From an uncultured Burkholderiaceae bacterium (GTDB lineage Bacteria; Pseudomonadota; Gammaproteobacteria; Burkholderiales; Burkholderiaceae_D), in the NCBI GenBank assembly GCA_964498835.1, contig CAZCIX010000004.1:1541-65540 (forward strand): a DNA stretch of 64,000 nt. The letters are read 5' to 3'. The notes under the pieces are model-generated. The model had not been told where the DNA came from. It made no database searches and was given only the letters and a program-made list of their open reading frames with translations. Of this stretch, positions 44,121-56,220 are shown in pieces (positions within the stretch are counted from its first letter, which is position 1; the number at the start of each line of letters is the position of its first letter). A program made the translations under genes and the position numbers.

Positions 44121-44231
44121 ATCGATAGCAAACGGTATAAACGCGCTACCTCACACACATAATAAAACGTCGTTCCCGCCTAAAAACGTGGAACGATGAT
44201 AATTTTCTTTGATCACGTTTTGAATACCAAC

Positions 44232-45566
44232 ATGCATCGTCCATCCAAAAATTCTCCCAAAAAAATATCTTCAGATAGCCAGCGCCTGATTGCTTTTGCA
44301 CAAGCCATCGTACAAGCCTCCAGCAGGATGGAAGAACGCACCTGGGAACAAGGTTTGGATAAATTGCTGCAAAAATTACTCAAAAATTCTCATCAAGATG
44401 CAATAGATGCTGCGCTGGGCTATCTTTTTCAGGAAGAGTTAACTGCTTACGAGGTTTTAATCACATCACTAGAAGCAACCAGTACATCTTGCAGCATCAC
44501 GCGAGAAGAAAATGGGGAAAAGGTGGAATACAAAGCGCTACTCATCGCCGTTCCCATTTTAGCCTGGACACGCTTCTCGATTGCGTCCGGGCCTCTTTCG
44601 GCAGATACGATGGCGGTACTCAGTAGCGATTTATCTGAGCACCTATTGGCGCCTCACACCCAACTTGCTATCGCACCCACTTTGTTTGCCATTGATCAAT
44701 TGCCACGCACTCCAGCCGAGGTGTTCACTTTTACGCAACGTTTGGCGCAAACAGCATTGAACAATGTACCATTCAAAACGCCTGCACAAACAACGGAAAC
44801 GGCACCTTTTCTAGCTGACATTCGCTATGTAATTGCCATTGTTGCTGCACCTGCCCAAGCCCCCTTGTTTCGCTGGCAAACCAATACCAATTTGCTGCAT
44901 TTGAACAAAGATCGTGCTGCCGCTCTGCAACAATGGCGGACACAAGTGACGCCACATATCACAGGTATTTTGCCCGGTTGTGGTCTTGAATTGCTACTAC
45001 CCGACGCCTACTTCGCTGCTTGTCGCGAGGCTGACAAGCAAATTCGCCCGCTTTCTATCCATGCTGCTGTTAATTACTTAACCCAAGCCTTGCAAGTCGA
45101 TCCATCCAAACTCCATGCAATCATCGGCAGTTTTGGCGAAGAAAATTCAGAAGGTCAAATCGACGAATATCGCATCAGTTTCACCGTTCACGATAACCCT
45201 GATGTCGTGTATGGAATAGTCTGGCCACTCTATGAATTAGAAAATGGTGACAATGACGACAATGACATGCGCATCATCAATGACTTAAACGACATAAATG
45301 AGAATAACAACGTCACACAAGACTTGATGCAAACAACGAGCTTGACACAAACTAACAATGCCACCAGCACCCATAAAACACCGTTACAGGAAATCCTGAT
45401 CCTATTACGCAAAGCAGGAATCATCCACATCGTGCATCACAATGAACGCTTTTTCACCGAATATTGCGATGACTGTGGTGTACCTTTGTTCCTGGATAAA
45501 GAAGCAGAGCTGGTTCATGCCGAAATGCCAGAAGAGTCCTATCCTGGCAATGAGCATTTTCATTGA
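44232..45566 (+). CDS. Conserved hypothetical protein (possibly DUF2863 family) with an Asn/Asp-rich insert
   Basis: A 444-aa ORF from Met13 of the track ORF, with no catalytic motif recognised. The C-terminal YCDDCGVPLF is reminiscent of DUF2863 proteins of Burkholderiales; this is from memory and unverified. Confidence 0.55.
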   Translation: MHRPSKNSPKKISSDSQRLIAFAQAIVQASSRMEERTWEQGLDKLLQKLLKNSHQDAIDAALGYLFQEELTAYEVLITSLEATSTSCSITREENGEKVEYKALLIAVPILAWTRFSIASGPLSADTMAVLSSDLSEHLLAPHTQLAIAPTLFAIDQLPRTPAEVFTFTQRLAQTALNNVPFKTPAQTTETAPFLADIRYVIAIVAAPAQAPLFRWQTNTNLLHLNKDRAAALQQWRTQVTPHITGILPGCGLELLLPDAYFAACREADKQIRPLSIHAAVNYLTQALQVDPSKLHAIIGSFGEENSEGQIDEYRISFTVHDNPDVVYGIVWPLYELENGDNDDNDMRIINDLNDINENNNVTQDLMQTTSLTQTNNATSTHKTPLQEILILLRKAGIIHIVHHNERFFTEYCDDCGVPLFLDKEAELVHAEMPEESYPGNEHFH

Positions 45567-45570
45567 CGAC

Positions 45571-47154
45571 TCAGGATTTGGTTTTAGTGGACGAAACGAC
45601 CAAATCAAACAAAGCAAATAATTCTTTTTCCAAAGCGCGGGTAAATCCCTTCACATCACACAAAGAGGATGCCCGCATAAGAGACCTCAAATCACGACGC
45701 AAGGTTTGCAGATATGCCACATCGTTCGCCAGCTTGACTGCAATTCGTACATAATCATCCTCATCACGCGCCGCCAGCTCAGGCAAACCAATCGCAGATA
45801 AAAACGCCAATGTCTGCCGACTCACCACCCGGCTTTGTGGCCACGTCACCACTGGGACACCCATCCACAATGCCTCGCAACTAGTCAACCCACCGGTAAA
45901 TGGAAAAGAATCCAGCGCAATATCAACATCGGCGTATTCCTTCAATACCTGACCGTGGAATGACGCGCCGCGCAAGATGATGCGCTCCGCCTCAATCCCC
46001 GCCGCGACAAAAAAGTCGCGCACAGATTGCGAAAAAGCCGGGTCCTGCAAAGTACGCCATTTCAATATCAACCGAGAATTCGGCACCGCCGCCAATATCC
46101 GTGCCCAAGTTGCATACACGCCAACATGCAACTTGGCAGTGTTATTAAAGCAGCCAAAAGTAATACAACCCTGCTGCAAACAAGGCAAAGGTGCCACTTC
46201 AGCTGGCGCAAAAGGCGCAGGCGTATAGCAAAAACGCCCGCCCCGCAATCGGATAATCGGCTCAACAAACTGCGCCTCAGTCCCCGCTGGCGCATGCCAC
46301 TCATCCAACAACACCGCGTCGATGACCGACAAACCAGTGCTGGCAAAATACCCCAACCAACTCACTTGCACTGGTGCTGGCCGATGAGCAAACACACTTA
46401 AACGCGAACCGGCGGTATGGCCAGACAAATCAACCAGCACATCAATCTGATCTTGCTGTATCAACGCCGCCAGCGCCGCATCATCCAATGCAGCCACATC
46501 GCGCCATACACAGCTAGCACGAATGGCATCGCTAATCCAATCACGCACCCGACCGGCGCTATAAGCAAAAACCTGCACCCGCTCAACATCATGCGCAGCG
46601 AGTACATCTTTAATAAACCACCCAACCGTATGCTGACAAAAATCTGCCGACACATAGCCTATCCGCAACAAGCGCCCCGACAATGGCAGCAAAGCAGGCC
46701 GGGCACGCATCCCACCCGCTTTCTCTATCGCCCACTTCCCCCAAGCCTGCGCCCGCTGCAAACGTTCAGCATCCGACGCTGCGGGGTCATATTCCAAACT
46801 CAACAACGCATTGCGCCGTATCACAGGATGATCCGGCAAGCGCGCCAGCAATGCTTCATCAATCCGCCGCGCAGCCTCATGCCGCCCCGCATCACGCGCC
46901 ACATTCGCCAAATTAAGCAATGGCCGCACATCATTCGGCAGCAATTCACGAACACGTGCAAAACACGGATGCGCAATCGATAAAAAACCAAACGCAAGCA
47001 ACAAAGAACCAATACTCAACAGCGCTTCAGGATCTTCGTTGTGGGTACTCATCATTTGCTGACAATGCAGCAAGAAGTCATCAAAACGGCCTTGGCCGGC
47101 TAGTTGGCGTGCTTGGGTTAGGGATGAGGATGCGTGCATTAGTGTGTGAATCAA
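45571..47154 (-). CDS. TPR-repeat protein fused to a GT41 (SPINDLY/O-GlcNAc-transferase-like) glycosyltransferase domain
   Basis: 527 aa with N-terminal TPR-like helices. The C-terminal part has the GT41 hallmark HTAGSRLSVFAHRPAPVQVSWLGYFASTG and FGCFNNTAKL. A 100-nt sample is ~62% GC. The track start is TTG 47154; the first ATG is at 47139. Confidence 0.8.
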   Translation of the reverse strand: MIHTLMHASSSLTQARQLAGQGRFDDFLLHCQQMMSTHNEDPEALLSIGSLLLAFGFLSIAHPCFARVRELLPNDVRPLLNLANVARDAGRHEAARRIDEALLARLPDHPVIRRNALLSLEYDPAASDAERLQRAQAWGKWAIEKAGGMRARPALLPLSGRLLRIGYVSADFCQHTVGWFIKDVLAAHDVERVQVFAYSAGRVRDWISDAIRASCVWRDVAALDDAALAALIQQDQIDVLVDLSGHTAGSRLSVFAHRPAPVQVSWLGYFASTGLSVIDAVLLDEWHAPAGTEAQFVEPIIRLRGGRFCYTPAPFAPAEVAPLPCLQQGCITFGCFNNTAKLHVGVYATWARILAAVPNSRLILKWRTLQDPAFSQSVRDFFVAAGIEAERIILRGASFHGQVLKEYADVDIALDSFPFTGGLTSCEALWMGVPVVTWPQSRVVSRQTLAFLSAIGLPELAARDEDDYVRIAVKLANDVAYLQTLRRDLRSLMRASSLCDVKGFTRALEKELFALFDLVVSSTKTKS

Positions 47155-47162
47155 CGTAAGTT

Positions 47163-47459
47163 CTACGCATGCGCAAACGAATGCACTTTGATAAGGCGCT
47201 CACCAACGCTTACCTCTGCGGTTTTTAAATCGTAAGAAGCTTGCAAACTAAGCCAGTATTGCGGTGATTGATCAAAAGCACGGCCAAATAACAAAGCCAG
47301 CTCCGCAGTCACAGGACGCGTCCCTTTAATCACATGCGAAATCCGCATTGCCGATATACCAATCGCTCGAGCGAATTCAGCTTGAGAAATGCACATTTCT
47401 TCCAAGATTTCTCCCAAAAACTCGCCAGGATGAATTGCAGATAAGCCATTTTTTGGCAT
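47163..47459 (-). CDS. higA: HigA-family XRE-type HTH antitoxin
   Basis: Met32 of the track ORF has an AGGAG RBS. The 98-aa protein reads MPKNGLSAIHPGEFLGEILEE...ISQAEFARAIGIS..RISHVIKGTRPVTAELALLFGRAF..SPQYWLSLQASYDL, which is the classical HigA signature. Confidence 0.85.
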   Translation of the reverse strand: MPKNGLSAIHPGEFLGEILEEMCISQAEFARAIGISAMRISHVIKGTRPVTAELALLFGRAFDQSPQYWLSLQASYDLKTAEVSVGERLIKVHSFAHA

Positions 47460-47470
47460 ATTTTTCTCCT

Positions 47471-47836
47471 TCATTTTTGATCTTCGGCATCCTGGCGCAC
47501 CGCTGACAATTGTTCGAGCAATGCCGGTAGCCATTTTTGTATCGTCTCCCACACCACGTCGAGGTCGATGTCGAAATAGCCATGAGCCATGCGATTACGC
47601 ATGTTACGCATGCTGCGCCACGGCACTTCGGCATGCGTCTGCGTAAACTCGGCATAGCCGTCCATTATTTTCGTAGCTGCTTCGCCGATGATGATGAGAC
47701 TCATGATGACTGCCTGTTGAGTACGCTTATCAACCAAAAAATCATCCTTGGCCAACCCTTCCACGAAAATACGCGCATCAGTCGCAGCCTGCTGTATGTG
47801 GTCAAGATAATCGGGCAATCGGTGATTCTCGCTCAT
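47471..47836 (-). CDS. hepT: HepT (DUF86) HEPN-domain toxin
   Basis: 121 aa with the Rx4H HEPN motif RNRMAHGY near the C-terminus. The start overlaps the mntA stop (ATGA). Confidence 0.9.
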   Translation of the reverse strand: MSENHRLPDYLDHIQQAATDARIFVEGLAKDDFLVDKRTQQAVIMSLIIIGEAATKIMDGYAEFTQTHAEVPWRSMRNMRNRMAHGYFDIDLDVVWETIQKWLPALLEQLSAVRQDAEDQK

Positions 47837-48123
47837 ACCGGTTGCGCCTCCGCGAGCACCTTGGCCCGAAACTTCAAAGGCAAGTCACCGGGGGTCAGTA
47901 AATCAACATTGATGCCGAGTAGCGATTTCAGCTCTTCTTCCAAATCGCCCAAATCCAGCAACGTGGCACCAGGTAACGCATCGACCAACAAATCAAGGTC
48001 GCTACCATCCTGGTCAGTGCCATGCAGTACCGATCCAAAAACGCGAGGATTCGCCGTGCGAAAACGGCCTACCGCTTCACGCACTGCAATTCGCTTCATA
48101 TCAAGCACAACGGAAGGTCGCAT
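47833..48123 (-). CDS. mntA: MntA minimal nucleotidyltransferase antitoxin
   Basis: 96 aa with the GSx10DxD motif (GSVLHGTDQDGSDLDLLVD). A GAAAGGA RBS is present. Confidence 0.9.
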   Translation of the reverse strand: MRPSVVLDMKRIAVREAVGRFRTANPRVFGSVLHGTDQDGSDLDLLVDALPGATLLDLGDLEEELKSLLGINVDLLTPGDLPLKFRAKVLAEAQPV

Positions 48124-48233
48124 GGTTATCCTTTCTTATCGAAATTTGTTGAAGTGGTAAACGATAGGTAAGCCATATTTTAAACGAGGCATTATCAAAG
48201 CCTCACACCCAGATTGTTCATACTCAATTGTAC

Positions 48234-49514
48234 TTACTCCTCCCCCAAATCCACCGACTCCCCACCCAACAACAACTGCGCCATATCAGAAGGCAACGCT
48301 TCCACTGATTTCAGTTTGCGCACCATTTGACGGCTGCGCACCTCGGCACTGTCGATGTTTTTGGCGGCGCGTTCTAGGGTCATTTTGGTGGCGGCTAGGA
48401 CTTCGCCGAATTTGCCGAATTCGGTTTTGACTGCACCCAGCACTTGCCATACTTCAGAAGAGCGTTGCTCCAATGCCAACGTGCGGAAGCCCATTTGTAG
48501 GCTGTTTAATAAAGCAGACAGAGTTGACGGTCCGGCGATACTGATGCGTTGGGTGCGTTGCAATTCATCGGCTAAACCAGGGCGACGCATGACTTCGGCG
48601 TATAAGCCTTCGGTAGGTAAAAACAAAATGGCAAAGTCGGTGGTCAATGGTGGGGAGAGATATTTGCTGGCAATTTTCTTGGCTTCCAAACGCACGGCAC
48701 GTTCCAATTCACGACCTGCTGCAGCGACGGCTTCAGCATCGGCGTGATCGGCAGCTTCGAGCAGGCGTTCGTATTGCTCACGTGGGAACTTGGCATCAAT
48801 CGGCATCCAGACTGGTGCGTCATTATTTTTGTTGCTATTGCCGGGCAATTTGATGGCGAATTCCACCCGTTCGCCTGAACCAGGGATGGTTTCTACGTTT
48901 TTACTGTATTGCTCAGGCGTCAAGACTTGTTCCAATAGCATTTCCAACTGTACTTCGCCCCAAGTACCGCGCGTTTTGACGTTGCTTAATACGCGTTTTA
49001 AATCGCCGACGCCGATGGCTAATTGCTGCATTTCACCCAAGCCTTGATGTACTTTTTCCAGTCGATCTGACACCAGTTTGAACGAGGCGCTCAAGCGTTG
49101 TTCCAGCGTGGCATGTAGTTTTTCATCCACCGTTTTACGCATTTCTTCCAACCTGATGCCATTATCGGTTTGCAAATCCCTGATTTTGGTTTCCAGCGTG
49201 GTGCGTATTTCACTCATGCGCTGGGCGTTGGATTCCGTCAGCGCATGCAAAGTTTGGTTCAAGGTATCGCCAAAGCGCTTCAAACTCAGAGATTGCTCCT
49301 CCCGCCCGCTGTGCGATTGCTGCGTGATGGTAAGGCGGATATTGTCCAATTGCTGCTGCATGTTTTGCTGTAATTGCAGCAATAAAGGCGCCATATCCGG
49401 CACATCCACTTCTTTCTGCGCTCGGCTACGCATCAAACTCGTGATTTGCAAAACTAGAACCACTACCAAAACAATGGCGATAGAAAGCATCATAAAAAAT
49501 TCAATTTGGCTCAT
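48234..49514 (-). CDS. rmuC: DNA recombination protein RmuC
   Basis: It has an N-terminal TM helix, a long coiled coil and a C-terminal RmuC nuclease-like domain (FAILFLPTEGLYAE). The start is taken at Met18 (MSQIEFFMML...); the track ORF extends to 49565. Confidence 0.9.
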   Translation of the reverse strand: MSQIEFFMMLSIAIVLVVVLVLQITSLMRSRAQKEVDVPDMAPLLLQLQQNMQQQLDNIRLTITQQSHSGREEQSLSLKRFGDTLNQTLHALTESNAQRMSEIRTTLETKIRDLQTDNGIRLEEMRKTVDEKLHATLEQRLSASFKLVSDRLEKVHQGLGEMQQLAIGVGDLKRVLSNVKTRGTWGEVQLEMLLEQVLTPEQYSKNVETIPGSGERVEFAIKLPGNSNKNNDAPVWMPIDAKFPREQYERLLEAADHADAEAVAAAGRELERAVRLEAKKIASKYLSPPLTTDFAILFLPTEGLYAEVMRRPGLADELQRTQRISIAGPSTLSALLNSLQMGFRTLALEQRSSEVWQVLGAVKTEFGKFGEVLAATKMTLERAAKNIDSAEVRSRQMVRKLKSVEALPSDMAQLLLGGESVDLGEE

Positions 49515-49569
49515 GATTAATCCAGATTTCCGATTAGCATCCATCGTTTCCGCAGGGGTAAGCAAGAAT

Positions 49570-50270: not shown

Positions 50271-50373
50271 AGCCGATCATTTTAATATGGGTTCGTCGGA
50301 AATCATTTTGCATCCCTTGGAATAACATTTTCAACACATTACAATGGGAAAGAGTTTCAACAAGGAGTCAAAC

Positions 50374-50604
50374 ATGGATCAATTAAATCGTATTACGCAA
50401 CAACCTGATGTAATGGGCGGCAAAGCGTGTATTCGTGGAATGCGCGTCACAGTCGGGATGATTTTGGGGCAAATCGGCACCGGGCAAAGCGTAGACGAAA
50501 TTCTACTGGACTACCCCTATTTAGAGCGTGAAGACATCATGCAAGCACTGCGCTACGCCTCATGGAGAGCCGAAGAACGCGAGGTCGTATTGGCCACAGC
50601 ATGA
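50374..50604 (+). CDS. DUF433 domain protein (putative antitoxin)
   Basis: Met11 of the track ORF has an AGGAG RBS 7 nt upstream. The 76-aa protein contains PDVMGGKACIRGMRVTV...DEILLDYPYLEREDIMQALRYA, typical of DUF433. Confidence 0.85.
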   Translation: MDQLNRITQQPDVMGGKACIRGMRVTVGMILGQIGTGQSVDEILLDYPYLEREDIMQALRYASWRAEEREVVLATA

Positions 50605-50975
50605 AGTTACTGCTTGATATGAACCTATCACCGCGCTGGGTAGGCACTCTGACAAACGCCGGTTTTGAGGCAGCACACTGGTCCATGCTTGGTGCAAAAA
50701 ACGCACCTGATTCTGAAATCATGATTTATGCCAAGGAAAATAATTATGTGGTTCTTACGCATGATTTAGATTTCAGTGCAATCCTCGCCGCTACGCATGG
50801 TGAAAAACCCAGCGTCGTACAAATCCGCTCAGATGACGTCAATCCAGACGTAATTGGTCAACAAACTATTATCGCCTTGCGACAAATGGAATCCGAACTC
50901 GCAGAAGGTGCGTTGCTCACCATTGACCAAAGCCGTACACGCTTACGTGTGCTTCCGTTGAGACCAAAAGAATAG
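50601..50975 (+). CDS. DUF5615 (PIN-like / Mut7-C-like) protein (putative toxin)
   Basis: The start overlaps the DUF433 stop (ATGA). The 124-aa protein reads MKLLLDMNLSP...DSEIMIYAKENNYVVLTHDLDF, typical of DUF5615. Confidence 0.8.
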   Translation: MKLLLDMNLSPRWVGTLTNAGFEAAHWSMLGAKNAPDSEIMIYAKENNYVVLTHDLDFSAILAATHGEKPSVVQIRSDDVNPDVIGQQTIIALRQMESELAEGALLTIDQSRTRLRVLPLRPKE

Positions 50976-53638: not shown

Positions 53639-56068
53639 TCAACGGATTTTTGGCAGATCAGTGGCAGACGCCGCACCTCGCCAGCGACGCAACATCAAAG
53701 CATTAGTGACGACACTCACGCTACTGAAAGCCATGGCTGCACCTGCAATAACAGGACTTAGCATGCCAAATGCTGCTAGAGGAATACCTAGTACGTTGTA
53801 CGCAAATGCCCAACATAGGCCCTGTTTAATTTTTGAATAAGTACGGCGCGAAACATCAAATGAATCCGCCACCAAACGCGGATCACCACGCATGAGGGTG
53901 ATACCTGCCGCTTCCATCGCCACATCAGTACCAGTCGACATCGACAAGCCAACGTCCGCCGCCGCCAGAGACGGCGCATCGTTCAGTCCATCACCCACCA
54001 TTGCCACAATGTGCCCCTGCTTGCGCAATTCCTGCACGATACCCACCTTATCACCCGGCAACAATTCTGCATGGATGTCATTGATACCAAGTTCACGCGC
54101 CACAATATGAGCACTACCACGATTATCACCGCTCAACATCACCGTCTGAATACCAAGCTTGCGCAACCGTGCAACAGCAGCATAAGCCGCTGGTTTAATC
54201 ATGTCACCAAAGGCTAACAAACCTAGTACATAAGCCCGATTGTTCTCGCGTGCCAGCAACCAAGAGATGGTTCGACCTTCACGCTCAAGGCGCTCAGCCG
54301 TGGCCAGCAGCGCACCCGGATCAGCATGTTCCTCGTTCATCAAGCGCGTGCTGCCCAGCAATAGGTGCCGGCCATCGACCACTGCTTGTACTCCCCGCCC
54401 CGGCAGCGCCCGAACCTCATGTGCCTGCGGCACAGTAAAATGCTGATCCCTGACCTTCTCCATCACCGCATGTGCAAGCGGATGGTCACTACTCTTCTGC
54501 AATGCGGCAGCAAGTTGTAACACTTCTTCCGAATCGTTTCCATCAATTGCCTCGATTACGACCAACGACGGCTTACCTTCAGTCAATGTGCCTGTCTTAT
54601 CGAAAGCCACGGTAGTCACCAAATGTGCCACTTCCAACGCCTCAGCATCCTTGATGAGGATACCCTGGCGAGCAGCTACACCTGTACCAACCATGATGGC
54701 AGTGGGTGTAGCCAGACCAAGTGCACAAGGACAAGCAATCACTAGAACAGCGACAGCATTAATCAAGGCCTGCTCTGTACTGGCACCAGCAAGAAGCCAG
54801 CCACTGAAAGTCAATAATGCAAGGCCAATAACAATGGGGACAAAAACCGCACTCACTCGGTCGACAATACGCTGAATAGGAGCCTTCGCCACCTGTGCTG
54901 ATTCCACCATACGAATGATCCTGGCCAACATGGTCTCCGTACCAATCGCCACAGTGCGAACTTGCATTACGCCTTCCTCATTGACGGATCCACCGGTTAC
55001 CTTATCGCCAACGTCCTTGGTCACTGGCAAGCTTTCGCCAGTGATGAGTGATTCATTGACATGACTGCGACCAACAACGACTTCGCCATCTACCGGTACC
55101 CGCTCTCCTGGGCGAATAACCACAATGTCACCAACCGCAACCTGTTCGACAGGTGTGGAAACCTCCATACCATCGACCATAACCCGAGCGATGGTCGGCC
55201 GCAACCCATTCAGCGAATTGATCGCGTCGGCAGTCTGCCGTTTAGCCCGCGTTTCAAGCCACTTGCCGAGCAACACCAACGTGATAACCGCGGCCGAAGC
55301 CTCGAAGTACACATGCGGCATGCCATGTTCGGCATGCTTCCACAGCAAATACACCGAAAGCCCATATGCCGCGCTTGTGCCAAGCACAACCAACAAATCC
55401 ATATTGCCAGTCCCTGCCTTCATGGCTTTCCAGCCAGCGCGGTAAAAGCGCGCGCCAAGACAAAACTGCACCGGTGTCGCCAAAGCAAGCTGCACCCAAC
55501 CGTCCAGCATCCAGTCGATGCCAAACAAGTTCAACAACATCGGCAGCACCAACGGAAGCGTTAGCAACGTGCTGACAAGAACCGGCCACCATTGAGGCAA
55601 CCCTGTATTAGCAGGTACAGCAGGGGCAATCTCGACTGGTTTGGCAACGTATCCCGCCTTGTTAACAGCCGCTGCCAGCGTTGCGAAAGAAACGGTAGCG
55701 AGCGCCAAGACGGTAGCCTTCTCAGTCGCAAGGTTCACCGTCGCAACCAATACACCAGGGATAGACAGTAGCTTTTTTTCCACTCGACCAACACACGAGG
55801 CACAGGTCATCCCTTGGATCAAAAACTCGGTCTGCTCGGTGCGAATCTCATAGCCAGCCTTGCGCACGACTTCTACAAGCACCCGGACATCTACATCACT
55901 TGAAGTACGCACAGTCACTTCCTCGGTTGCGAGATTGACCGAAGTGCGCTCTACGCCTGGCACCTCCTGTAACGCTTTCTCAACGCGAAAAACACAACTC
56001 GAACAAGTCATGCCTTTAACAGGAAGCGTGAACTCCAAAGTAGTGGTTGGCATAATCGTTGTATTCAT
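53639..56068 (-). CDS. copA: Copper-translocating P1B-type ATPase
   Basis: It has two N-terminal HMA domains (GMTCSSC, GMTCASC), the TM CPC motif ([11 protein letters not shown]), DKTGTLT and GDGLNDAP. A 100-nt sample is ~60% GC. The track ORF opens at TTG 56080; the first ATG is at 56068. Confidence 0.95.
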
Positions 56069-56220
56069 AAGAATATCCAATTCGTTGGTTTATTAATAAA
56101 TCGCCATTTTTGCCCTTTTCATTATTATGAGGGGAAAGCGATTTACAAAAAATTTTCTAATCTGTATTAGTTCAGATAATATCTGCCAGATACCCTATAA
56201 AAACTGGCCACTGTCAGATC

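Follow-up and report, generated by a model that had tools for sequence, protein, structure and literature searches.

A probable patchwork of toxin–antitoxin genes beside a resident SPINDLY-like glycosyltransferase gene in a Burkholderiaceae chromosome

Four minus-strand genes, mntA, hepT, higA and a gene for a TPR/GT41 protein glycosyltransferase (here GT41), lie head-to-tail in a 64,000-nt stretch of contig CAZCIX010000004.1 from an uncultured Burkholderiaceae bacterium (assembly GCA_964498835.1); this whole stretch is called the window below. The original prediction had proposed that the four form a composite toxin–antitoxin (TA) or defence module, with GT41 perhaps serving as a second effector that HigA keeps in check. 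Comparison with the nearest relatives, where the genes accompanying GT41 differ, instead makes it highly probable that the group is a strain-specific patchwork of three independent parts, formed at a hotspot where TA genes accrete and turn over within one small lineage, with rmuC on one side and a resident SPINDLY-like GT41 gene on the other. Judged by sequence, all three parts belong to known types (a type VII TA pair, a HigA without its toxin and a SPINDLY-like GT41 enzyme), and the group is not a new four-gene system.

The first part would be an intact, self-contained, mobile type VII pair, mntA–hepT. The second, higA, would have come in as half of a normal higB–higA pair, whose toxin gene and promoter were later displaced by the mntA–hepT block, with the new junction falling just past the old higB stop codon. 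The loss of higB appears to have happened separately in two lineages: one relative, L001, would have lost part of the gene by deletion, and in the window the gene would have been replaced. The third part, GT41, would have been inherited with its flanks and would have no specific tie to the TA genes. The tight spacing of the four genes would then be a by-product of insertion and deletion, and higA and GT41, which seem to lack promoters of their own, would probably rely on read-through from the mntA–hepT promoter or from rmuC.

If this history is right, one mobile pair ousted the toxin gene of another, so that an antitoxin was left on its own and the incoming toxin gene took over a stop codon from the older locus. 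The locus would be a clean, datable natural case of TA turnover at base-pair resolution, and would otherwise hold little new biology. It would also carry a caution for genome scans, since tight co-directional packing free of terminators can be the product of insertion and deletion, and taken alone is no sign of a functional operon.

Slot content and breakpoints in related loci

A genome scan with GT41, which gave two syntenic metagenome-assembled genomes (MAGs), shows that close relatives share the frame greB–rmuC–slot–GT41–DUF2863–acnA. In the window the slot holds mntA–hepT–higA, and the same arrangement is seen in three short contigs from three other samples (L108–L110), found by an exact look-up of HigA. 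In L004, an Oxalobacteraceae MAG whose GT41 is 93% identical to that of the window, the slot holds mntA–hepT, followed by 114 unrelated nt and then GT41, with no higA; its MntA–HepT is 98% identical to that of the window at the amino-acid level. In L001 (the L005 contig), a Burkholderiaceae MAG with a GT41 of 87% identity, mntA–hepT is missing and the slot holds a higB stump, higA and genes for DUF433, DUF5615 and DUF2442 proteins, so that 970 nt of other TA genes separate higA from GT41. The fourth allele, L111, came from the same exact-HigA look-up and is 96% identical in nucleotide sequence to window positions 47478–46885. It has an intact HigB of 93 aa (PF05015) and a HigA 100% identical to that of the window, with GT41 starting 6 nt further on. 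Comparison of the four alleles thus shows that the TA genes of the slot differ while GT41 is constant.

The stump in L001 matches positions 54–91 of the HigB Pfam model (E-value 4e-5, with its in-frame stop replaced by W in the query) and residues 53–93 of the L111 HigB at 88% identity. The in-frame stop lies inside the stump.

The points at which blastn homology starts and stops place the joint between the parts at the end of hepT. Between the window and L004, homology runs from rmuC into hepT, where it ends at 47482, which is 11 nt short of the stop codon, and restarts only at 47132, inside GT41. Between the window and L001 or L111, homology begins at 47477/47478. Homology to plasmids carrying the mntA–hepT block ends at 47477, the same base at which homology to the higA block begins. 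The breakpoints therefore coincide across independent comparisons. In L111 the sequence at the breakpoint is CAC TGA|AAAATGAAGGAG, that is, homology starts directly after the higB stop codon; the junction there reads CAC TGA|AAAATGAAGGAGAAAAATATG, and its counterpart in the window is GAT CAA AAA TGA AGGAG. As the breakpoint lies just after the old higB stop, the last codons of hepT and its stop codon would be the former higB–higA spacer. The junctions of the window are found again in the three other samples at 97–100% nucleotide identity, and are therefore no artefact of assembly. In a caveat, the original prediction had allowed that separate acquisitions might have made the cassette a mosaic, and it is this caveat that the alleles and breakpoints of L004, L001, L111 and the plasmids bear out.

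The junction has left a HepT of 121 aa. Its homologues are mostly 128–130 aa long with variable tails, and some of them stop where the window protein stops. Function is probably retained in the 121-aa form, because the missing tail is poorly conserved and because of those homologues that end at the same place.

The three parts and their relatives

The assignment of all four genes in the original prediction agrees with Pfam and NCBIfam, and the family background that it quoted is correct. For the first part, MntA scores 35.4 bits against PF01909 (cut-off 21) and 32.1 bits against PF18765, matches the PDB entry 1wot at 4.5e-12, and carries the GSX10DXD motif, GSVLHGTDQDGSDLD, at residues 30–44. 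HepT scores 93.8 bits against PF01934 (DUF86/HepT-like; cut-off 23.5) and carries the RX4HXY motif as RNRMAHGY at residues 80–87; a PDB sequence search with HepT gave no match. The two motifs are the signatures by which type VII pairs were defined (PMC7641770), and the pair has the motifs and Pfam families of that founding definition. By analogy with the family, the GSX10DXD motif would enable MntA to oligo-AMPylate HepT at Tyr87, within RX4HXY, so blocking the RNase (PMC7641770). The pair resembles HepT/MntA of Shewanella oneidensis (SO_3166/SO_3165; PMC7641770) in its mntA-first order, 4-nt overlap, PF01909 and PF01934 domains and both motifs. It differs in that the sequences are distant and in that the tail of the window HepT has been replaced at the recombination junction (121 versus 128 aa).

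Much closer relatives of the pair are found on plasmids. In a blastn search of PLSDB with the whole mntA–hepT–higA region (47163–48123), the mntA–hepT block was about 84% identical in nucleotide sequence to a two-gene module in 1,466 plasmid records, mostly conjugative plasmids of Klebsiella and Enterobacter. Among the plasmid matches listed, all span query positions 1–647, which correspond to mntA–hepT up to window position 47477. No record covers at least 80% of the query, so none of the 1,466 reaches higA. In LC735981.1 (p6BC1_mcr-9) the module encodes a 96-aa nucleotidyltransferase and a 128-aa DUF86 protein, with a 4-nt overlap, between copies of IS26. The plasmid pair thus shares with the window 84% nucleotide identity across the block, a MntA of the same length and the same overlap, but it is flanked by IS26, encodes a full-length HepT and has no adjoining higA or GT41, whereas the window block is chromosomal and its HepT is fused into the higA leader. 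The block compared lies at 47477–48123 in the window and at 2501–3174 in L112. These matches point to a mntA–hepT module that has spread horizontally and widely across proteobacterial classes.

The second part, HigA, scores 80 bits against TIGR02607 (cut-off 47.7) and aligns end to end with the HigA/GraA structures 7csv and 6f8s at about 1e-17. In the HigBA/GraTA systems to which these belong (Pseudomonas aeruginosa HigA, 7csv and 6jpi; Pseudomonas putida GraA, 6f8s) the antitoxin is alike, and L111 keeps the canonical toxin-first order higB–higA. In the window the antitoxin alone is left: higB and its promoter are gone, and so is the putative operator. A tblastn search of the window with the L111 HigB found no higB, and hepT directly abuts higA; the identical HigA of L111 adjoins the intact HigB, and the 94% identical HigA of L001 adjoins the stump. 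The likely HigA operator is a palindrome, ATAAAC-N5-GTTTAT, that overlaps the higB promoter at two independent loci, L111 (at about 92–108) and L103 (at about 1016–1032). A search of the whole 64-kb window for it, with up to one mismatch tolerated, gave no match, which leaves HigA without an evident target there.

The third part matches the GT41 domain PF13844 at 177 bits (cut-off 25) and TPR_14 at 28.2 bits (cut-off 23.5). Its best solved relative is SPINDLY (SPY) of Arabidopsis (7y4i; 294 bits over residues 24–505), followed by a Thermobaculum terrenum protein (5djs; 256 bits), human OGT (166 bits) and XcOGT (2jlb; 140 bits). With SPY, 5djs and XcOGT it shares the plan of a TPR region, here short, followed by the GT41 catalytic domain, but it has few TPRs and a length of 522 aa. 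Of the two blocks that hold the His and Lys of the catalytic site, DFCQH (residue 166) aligns with DFFTH of SPY and FNNTAK (residue 331) with FNNLAK, within the longer stretches GYVSADFCQH (SPY GYISPDFFTH) and FGCFNNTAKL (SPY FGSFNNLAKI). These blocks would be the equivalents of H498 and K842 of human OGT. The family is very large: its members in Proteobacteria and Desulfobacterota show about 65% identity, and in many of them a SAM methyltransferase domain is fused to the protein. An exact look-up of the window protein (P0001) returned no contig on record.

The age of GT41 at the locus can be compared with that of its neighbours. Its synonymous divergence (dS) is 0.18 from L004 and 0.52 from L001; the corresponding values are 0.20 and 0.35 for the DUF2863 gene and 0.38 and 0.56 for rmuC. 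GT41 thus matches its flanks and would have been inherited with them while the slot turned over.

The original prediction had itself named recurrent co-occurrence of GT41 with higA, hepT and mntA in other genomes as the test of a module. Beside the plasmids, none of which joins the mntA–hepT block to higA, this was followed at 40 further genome loci with GT41 homologues, most of them distant (24–64% identity), by taking all co-directional ORFs (open reading frames) of 55–250 aa within 1.5 kb upstream of GT41. None of the 139 ORFs matches HTH_3, HepT-like, NTP_transf_2 or any other TA Pfam family. By that test, with the differing slots of the nearest relatives counted in, the proposed module fails.

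On unrelated contigs, the close homologues of GT41 (at least 62% identity) usually neighbour type I secretion genes (ABC transporter, AprE/HlyD-type fusion protein, OEP) or, alternatively, genes for trypsin-like proteins with RTX, Calx-beta, He_PIG or DUF4214 domains (L002 6553–9731; L049 4219–6938; L050 4336–8817; L006 7564–9183; L008 8313–9518; L048 8602–9831). This suggests a partnership between glycosylation and secretion in the GT41 clade. The 64-kb window has no such partners, neither genes for type I secretion nor genes for trypsin-like RTX/Calx-beta proteins.

The start of GT41 also varies in its setting. The ATG at 47139 is conserved in three related alleles, where the protein begins with MH followed by A or T, and fits a 522-aa database protein. 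No Shine–Dalgarno sequence is recognisable before it in any allele (window 47140–47162; L111 716–721; L004 5908–5952; L001 3078–3098). Upstream of about -20 from this ATG the sequence is different in each allele, and the higA–GT41 gap of L111 is 17 nt shorter than that of the window.

Weighing other explanations

Several observations weigh against a patchwork of independent parts. The relatives compared are all MAGs or short metagenome contigs, and L111 is only 976 nt long, its upstream 118 nt matching nothing else. HepT and MntA score below the cut-offs of the NCBIfam equivalog models NF047751/NF047752 (38 and 32.8 bits against 60), models that are narrow. In two of the alleles, the window and L111, higA stands directly before GT41, and L001 has the two genes as well. 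From L001 the window higA has a dS of 0.43, so the higBA–GT41 neighbourhood would be old, which could hint at a functional link. The higA gene is still intact after what appear to be two independent losses of higB. Lastly, three of the seven unrelated contigs with close-clade GT41 genes have TA genes nearby, of other families (VapBC, MqsRA and CcdAB in L002, and one PIN pair each in L048 and L049), so that a generic association of TA genes with GT41 islands is possible.

The last of these points leads to the alternative in which GT41 is horizontally acquired cargo, with adjacent TA modules persisting because they stabilise the island against deletion. The GC content of GT41 is indeed an outlier, 53.2% against 46.2% for the window (the top 1.6% among stretches of the same length), and close-clade GT41 genes elsewhere lie beside an integrase (L050) as well as the TA genes just listed. 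A metagenome scan with DUF2863 gave 51 loci at 50–55% identity that keep acnA–DUF2863 and have nothing like the window downstream, GT41 included; synteny with these more distant relatives ends at the 3' end of DUF2863, and the loci do not date the acquisition of GT41. However, the dS of GT41 equals that of its flanks, which speaks for vertical inheritance while the TA genes turned over, and the TA content of the slot has shifted freely, loss of a toxin included, with GT41 kept. The marks of a mobile island are also wanting: the window has no tRNA gene, the region from 44.0 to 51.2 kb contains no Rfam family, no direct or inverted repeats or att-like sites flank the block, and no integrase ORF was seen at the locus or among the larger ORFs of the window. 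There are, moreover, no TA genes near GT41 in L006–L008. A stabilised cargo island is thus an unlikely explanation.

The persistence of higA could in theory reflect co-option of the solitary antitoxin. It might regulate transcription of the operon and GT41, or it might serve in anti-addiction by neutralising HigB paralogues that lie elsewhere in the genome or come in on plasmids. Such a role would fit the finding that higA is intact in both lineages from which higB was lost, each time by a different deletion, and also its low ratio of non-synonymous to synonymous divergence (dN/dS), 0.06 against L001. Solitary antitoxins are a topic in the literature (PMC7354431). Against this, the window HigA is 100% identical to that of L111, where higB persists; the loss of higB in the window would therefore be recent, and the low dN/dS would stem mostly from the period in which higB was present. 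The absence of the palindrome from the whole window, even with one mismatch allowed, and the fact that L004 manages without higA, tell in the same direction, and co-option seems quite unlikely.

A combined version, in which HigA has been domesticated as a regulator or anti-addiction factor and GT41 is expressed only by read-through from TA promoters, appears very unlikely. Its starting point is that GT41 shows neither a ribosome-binding site nor a promoter signal belonging to itself in any of the alleles. If true, such dependence of GT41 on read-through would couple protein glycosylation to TA autoregulation.

That the four genes are one co-evolved composite TA or defence system, with GT41 as a second effector under HigA, is hardly credible: although the genes are co-directional and closely packed, with no predicted terminators between them, MntA matches the PADLOC candidate defence family PDC-S09 (83 bits) and the arrangement is stable in three other samples, GT41 occurs with mntA–hepT but no higA in L004 and with higA but no mntA–hepT, 970 nt of other genes intervening, in L001, L111 carries a canonical higB–higA pair, the hepT–higA junction looks like a deletion scar, the co-occurrence counts are zero in 1,466 plasmid records and at 40 other GT41 loci, and GT41 has no meaningful PADLOC match (its hits and those of HigA are noise, and HepT has none).

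Layout of the locus and its surroundings

The coordinates of the locus are collected below. The window as a whole is core chromosome, with tricarboxylic acid cycle genes, hfq and der.

Table. Features of the rmuC–GT41 slot and its borders (window positions)
Feature	Position	Strand	Product length	Description
DUF2863 gene	44196..45566	+		PF11062, 490 bits; conserved right neighbour, syntenic in L004 and L001
TPR + GT41 gene	45571..47139	-	522 aa	SPINDLY-like protein glycosyltransferase; anchor of the locus
higA	47163..47459	-	98 aa	solitary HigA-family XRE antitoxin; probable higBA remnant
Probable recombination scar	47471..47482	-		joint of mntA–hepT block and higA block, from blastn breakpoints
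hepT	47471..47836	-	121 aa	HEPN RNase toxin family
mntA	47833..48123	-	96 aa	minimal nucleotidyltransferase antitoxin of type VII pair
rmuC–mntA spacer	48124..48233	-		sole promoter-like site on the minus strand
rmuC	48234..49565	-		PF02646, 259 bits; conserved left border of variable slot

The packing of the genes, their overlap and gaps and the convergent stops are all as originally described. Along the minus strand the gaps are -4, 11 and 23 nt. The TGA of mntA (read from 48123 to 47833) overlaps the ATG of hepT as ATGA; the hepT stop at 47471 is followed by the 11-nt spacer, which contains AGGAG, and by the higA ATG at 47459. After the higA stop at 47163 there are two candidate starts for GT41, a TTG at 47154 (8 nt on) and the conserved ATG (23 nt on). 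The stops of GT41 (45571) and the DUF2863 gene (45566) converge with 4 nt between them. The absence of hairpin terminators between the genes also held up, with none predicted in the three gaps. The locus was also considered as an integron gene-cassette array, an idea that fails because gaps of this size leave no room for attC sites and the junctions carry neither repeats nor inverted repeats.

The only promoter-like site on the minus strand, TGAACA-18-GATAAT at 48220–48191, lies upstream of mntA and is a mere consensus match. Its -10 hexamer is changed in L004, and for this reason the site is not relied on here. The rmuC–mntA spacer in which it lies is common to the window and L004 and absent in L001, where homology stops exactly at the rmuC stop codon.

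Base composition had been put forward as setting the cassette apart. The three hand counts over 100 nt (62%, 54% and 47%) prove exact, but the figure of about 60% given for GT41 was too high, its gene-wide value being 53.2%. Gene-wide GC is 53.6% for mntA, 50.8% for hepT and 45.8% for higA. Only one more stretch of the window reaches the GC content of GT41, an ORF of 813 aa at 53639–56080 on the minus strand (about 54% GC). From its N-terminal sequence it is presumably a heavy-metal-transporting P-type ATPase, possibly another acquired gene.

On the plus strand, an ORF of 207 aa at 47537–48160 runs antisense across mntA–hepT and has a counterpart in L004. This ORF seems to be a spurious shadow of the two small genes, and it misleads longest-ORF callers into missing them. 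Beyond greB, also on the plus strand, there is a second TA-like pair at 50344–50975, formed by the overlapping ORFs of a DUF433 gene (50344–50604) and a DUF5615/PIN_10 gene (50562–50975). This pair is 97–99.6% identical in nucleotide sequence in L004; the DUF433–DUF5615 pair in the rmuC–GT41 slot of L001 is a different one.

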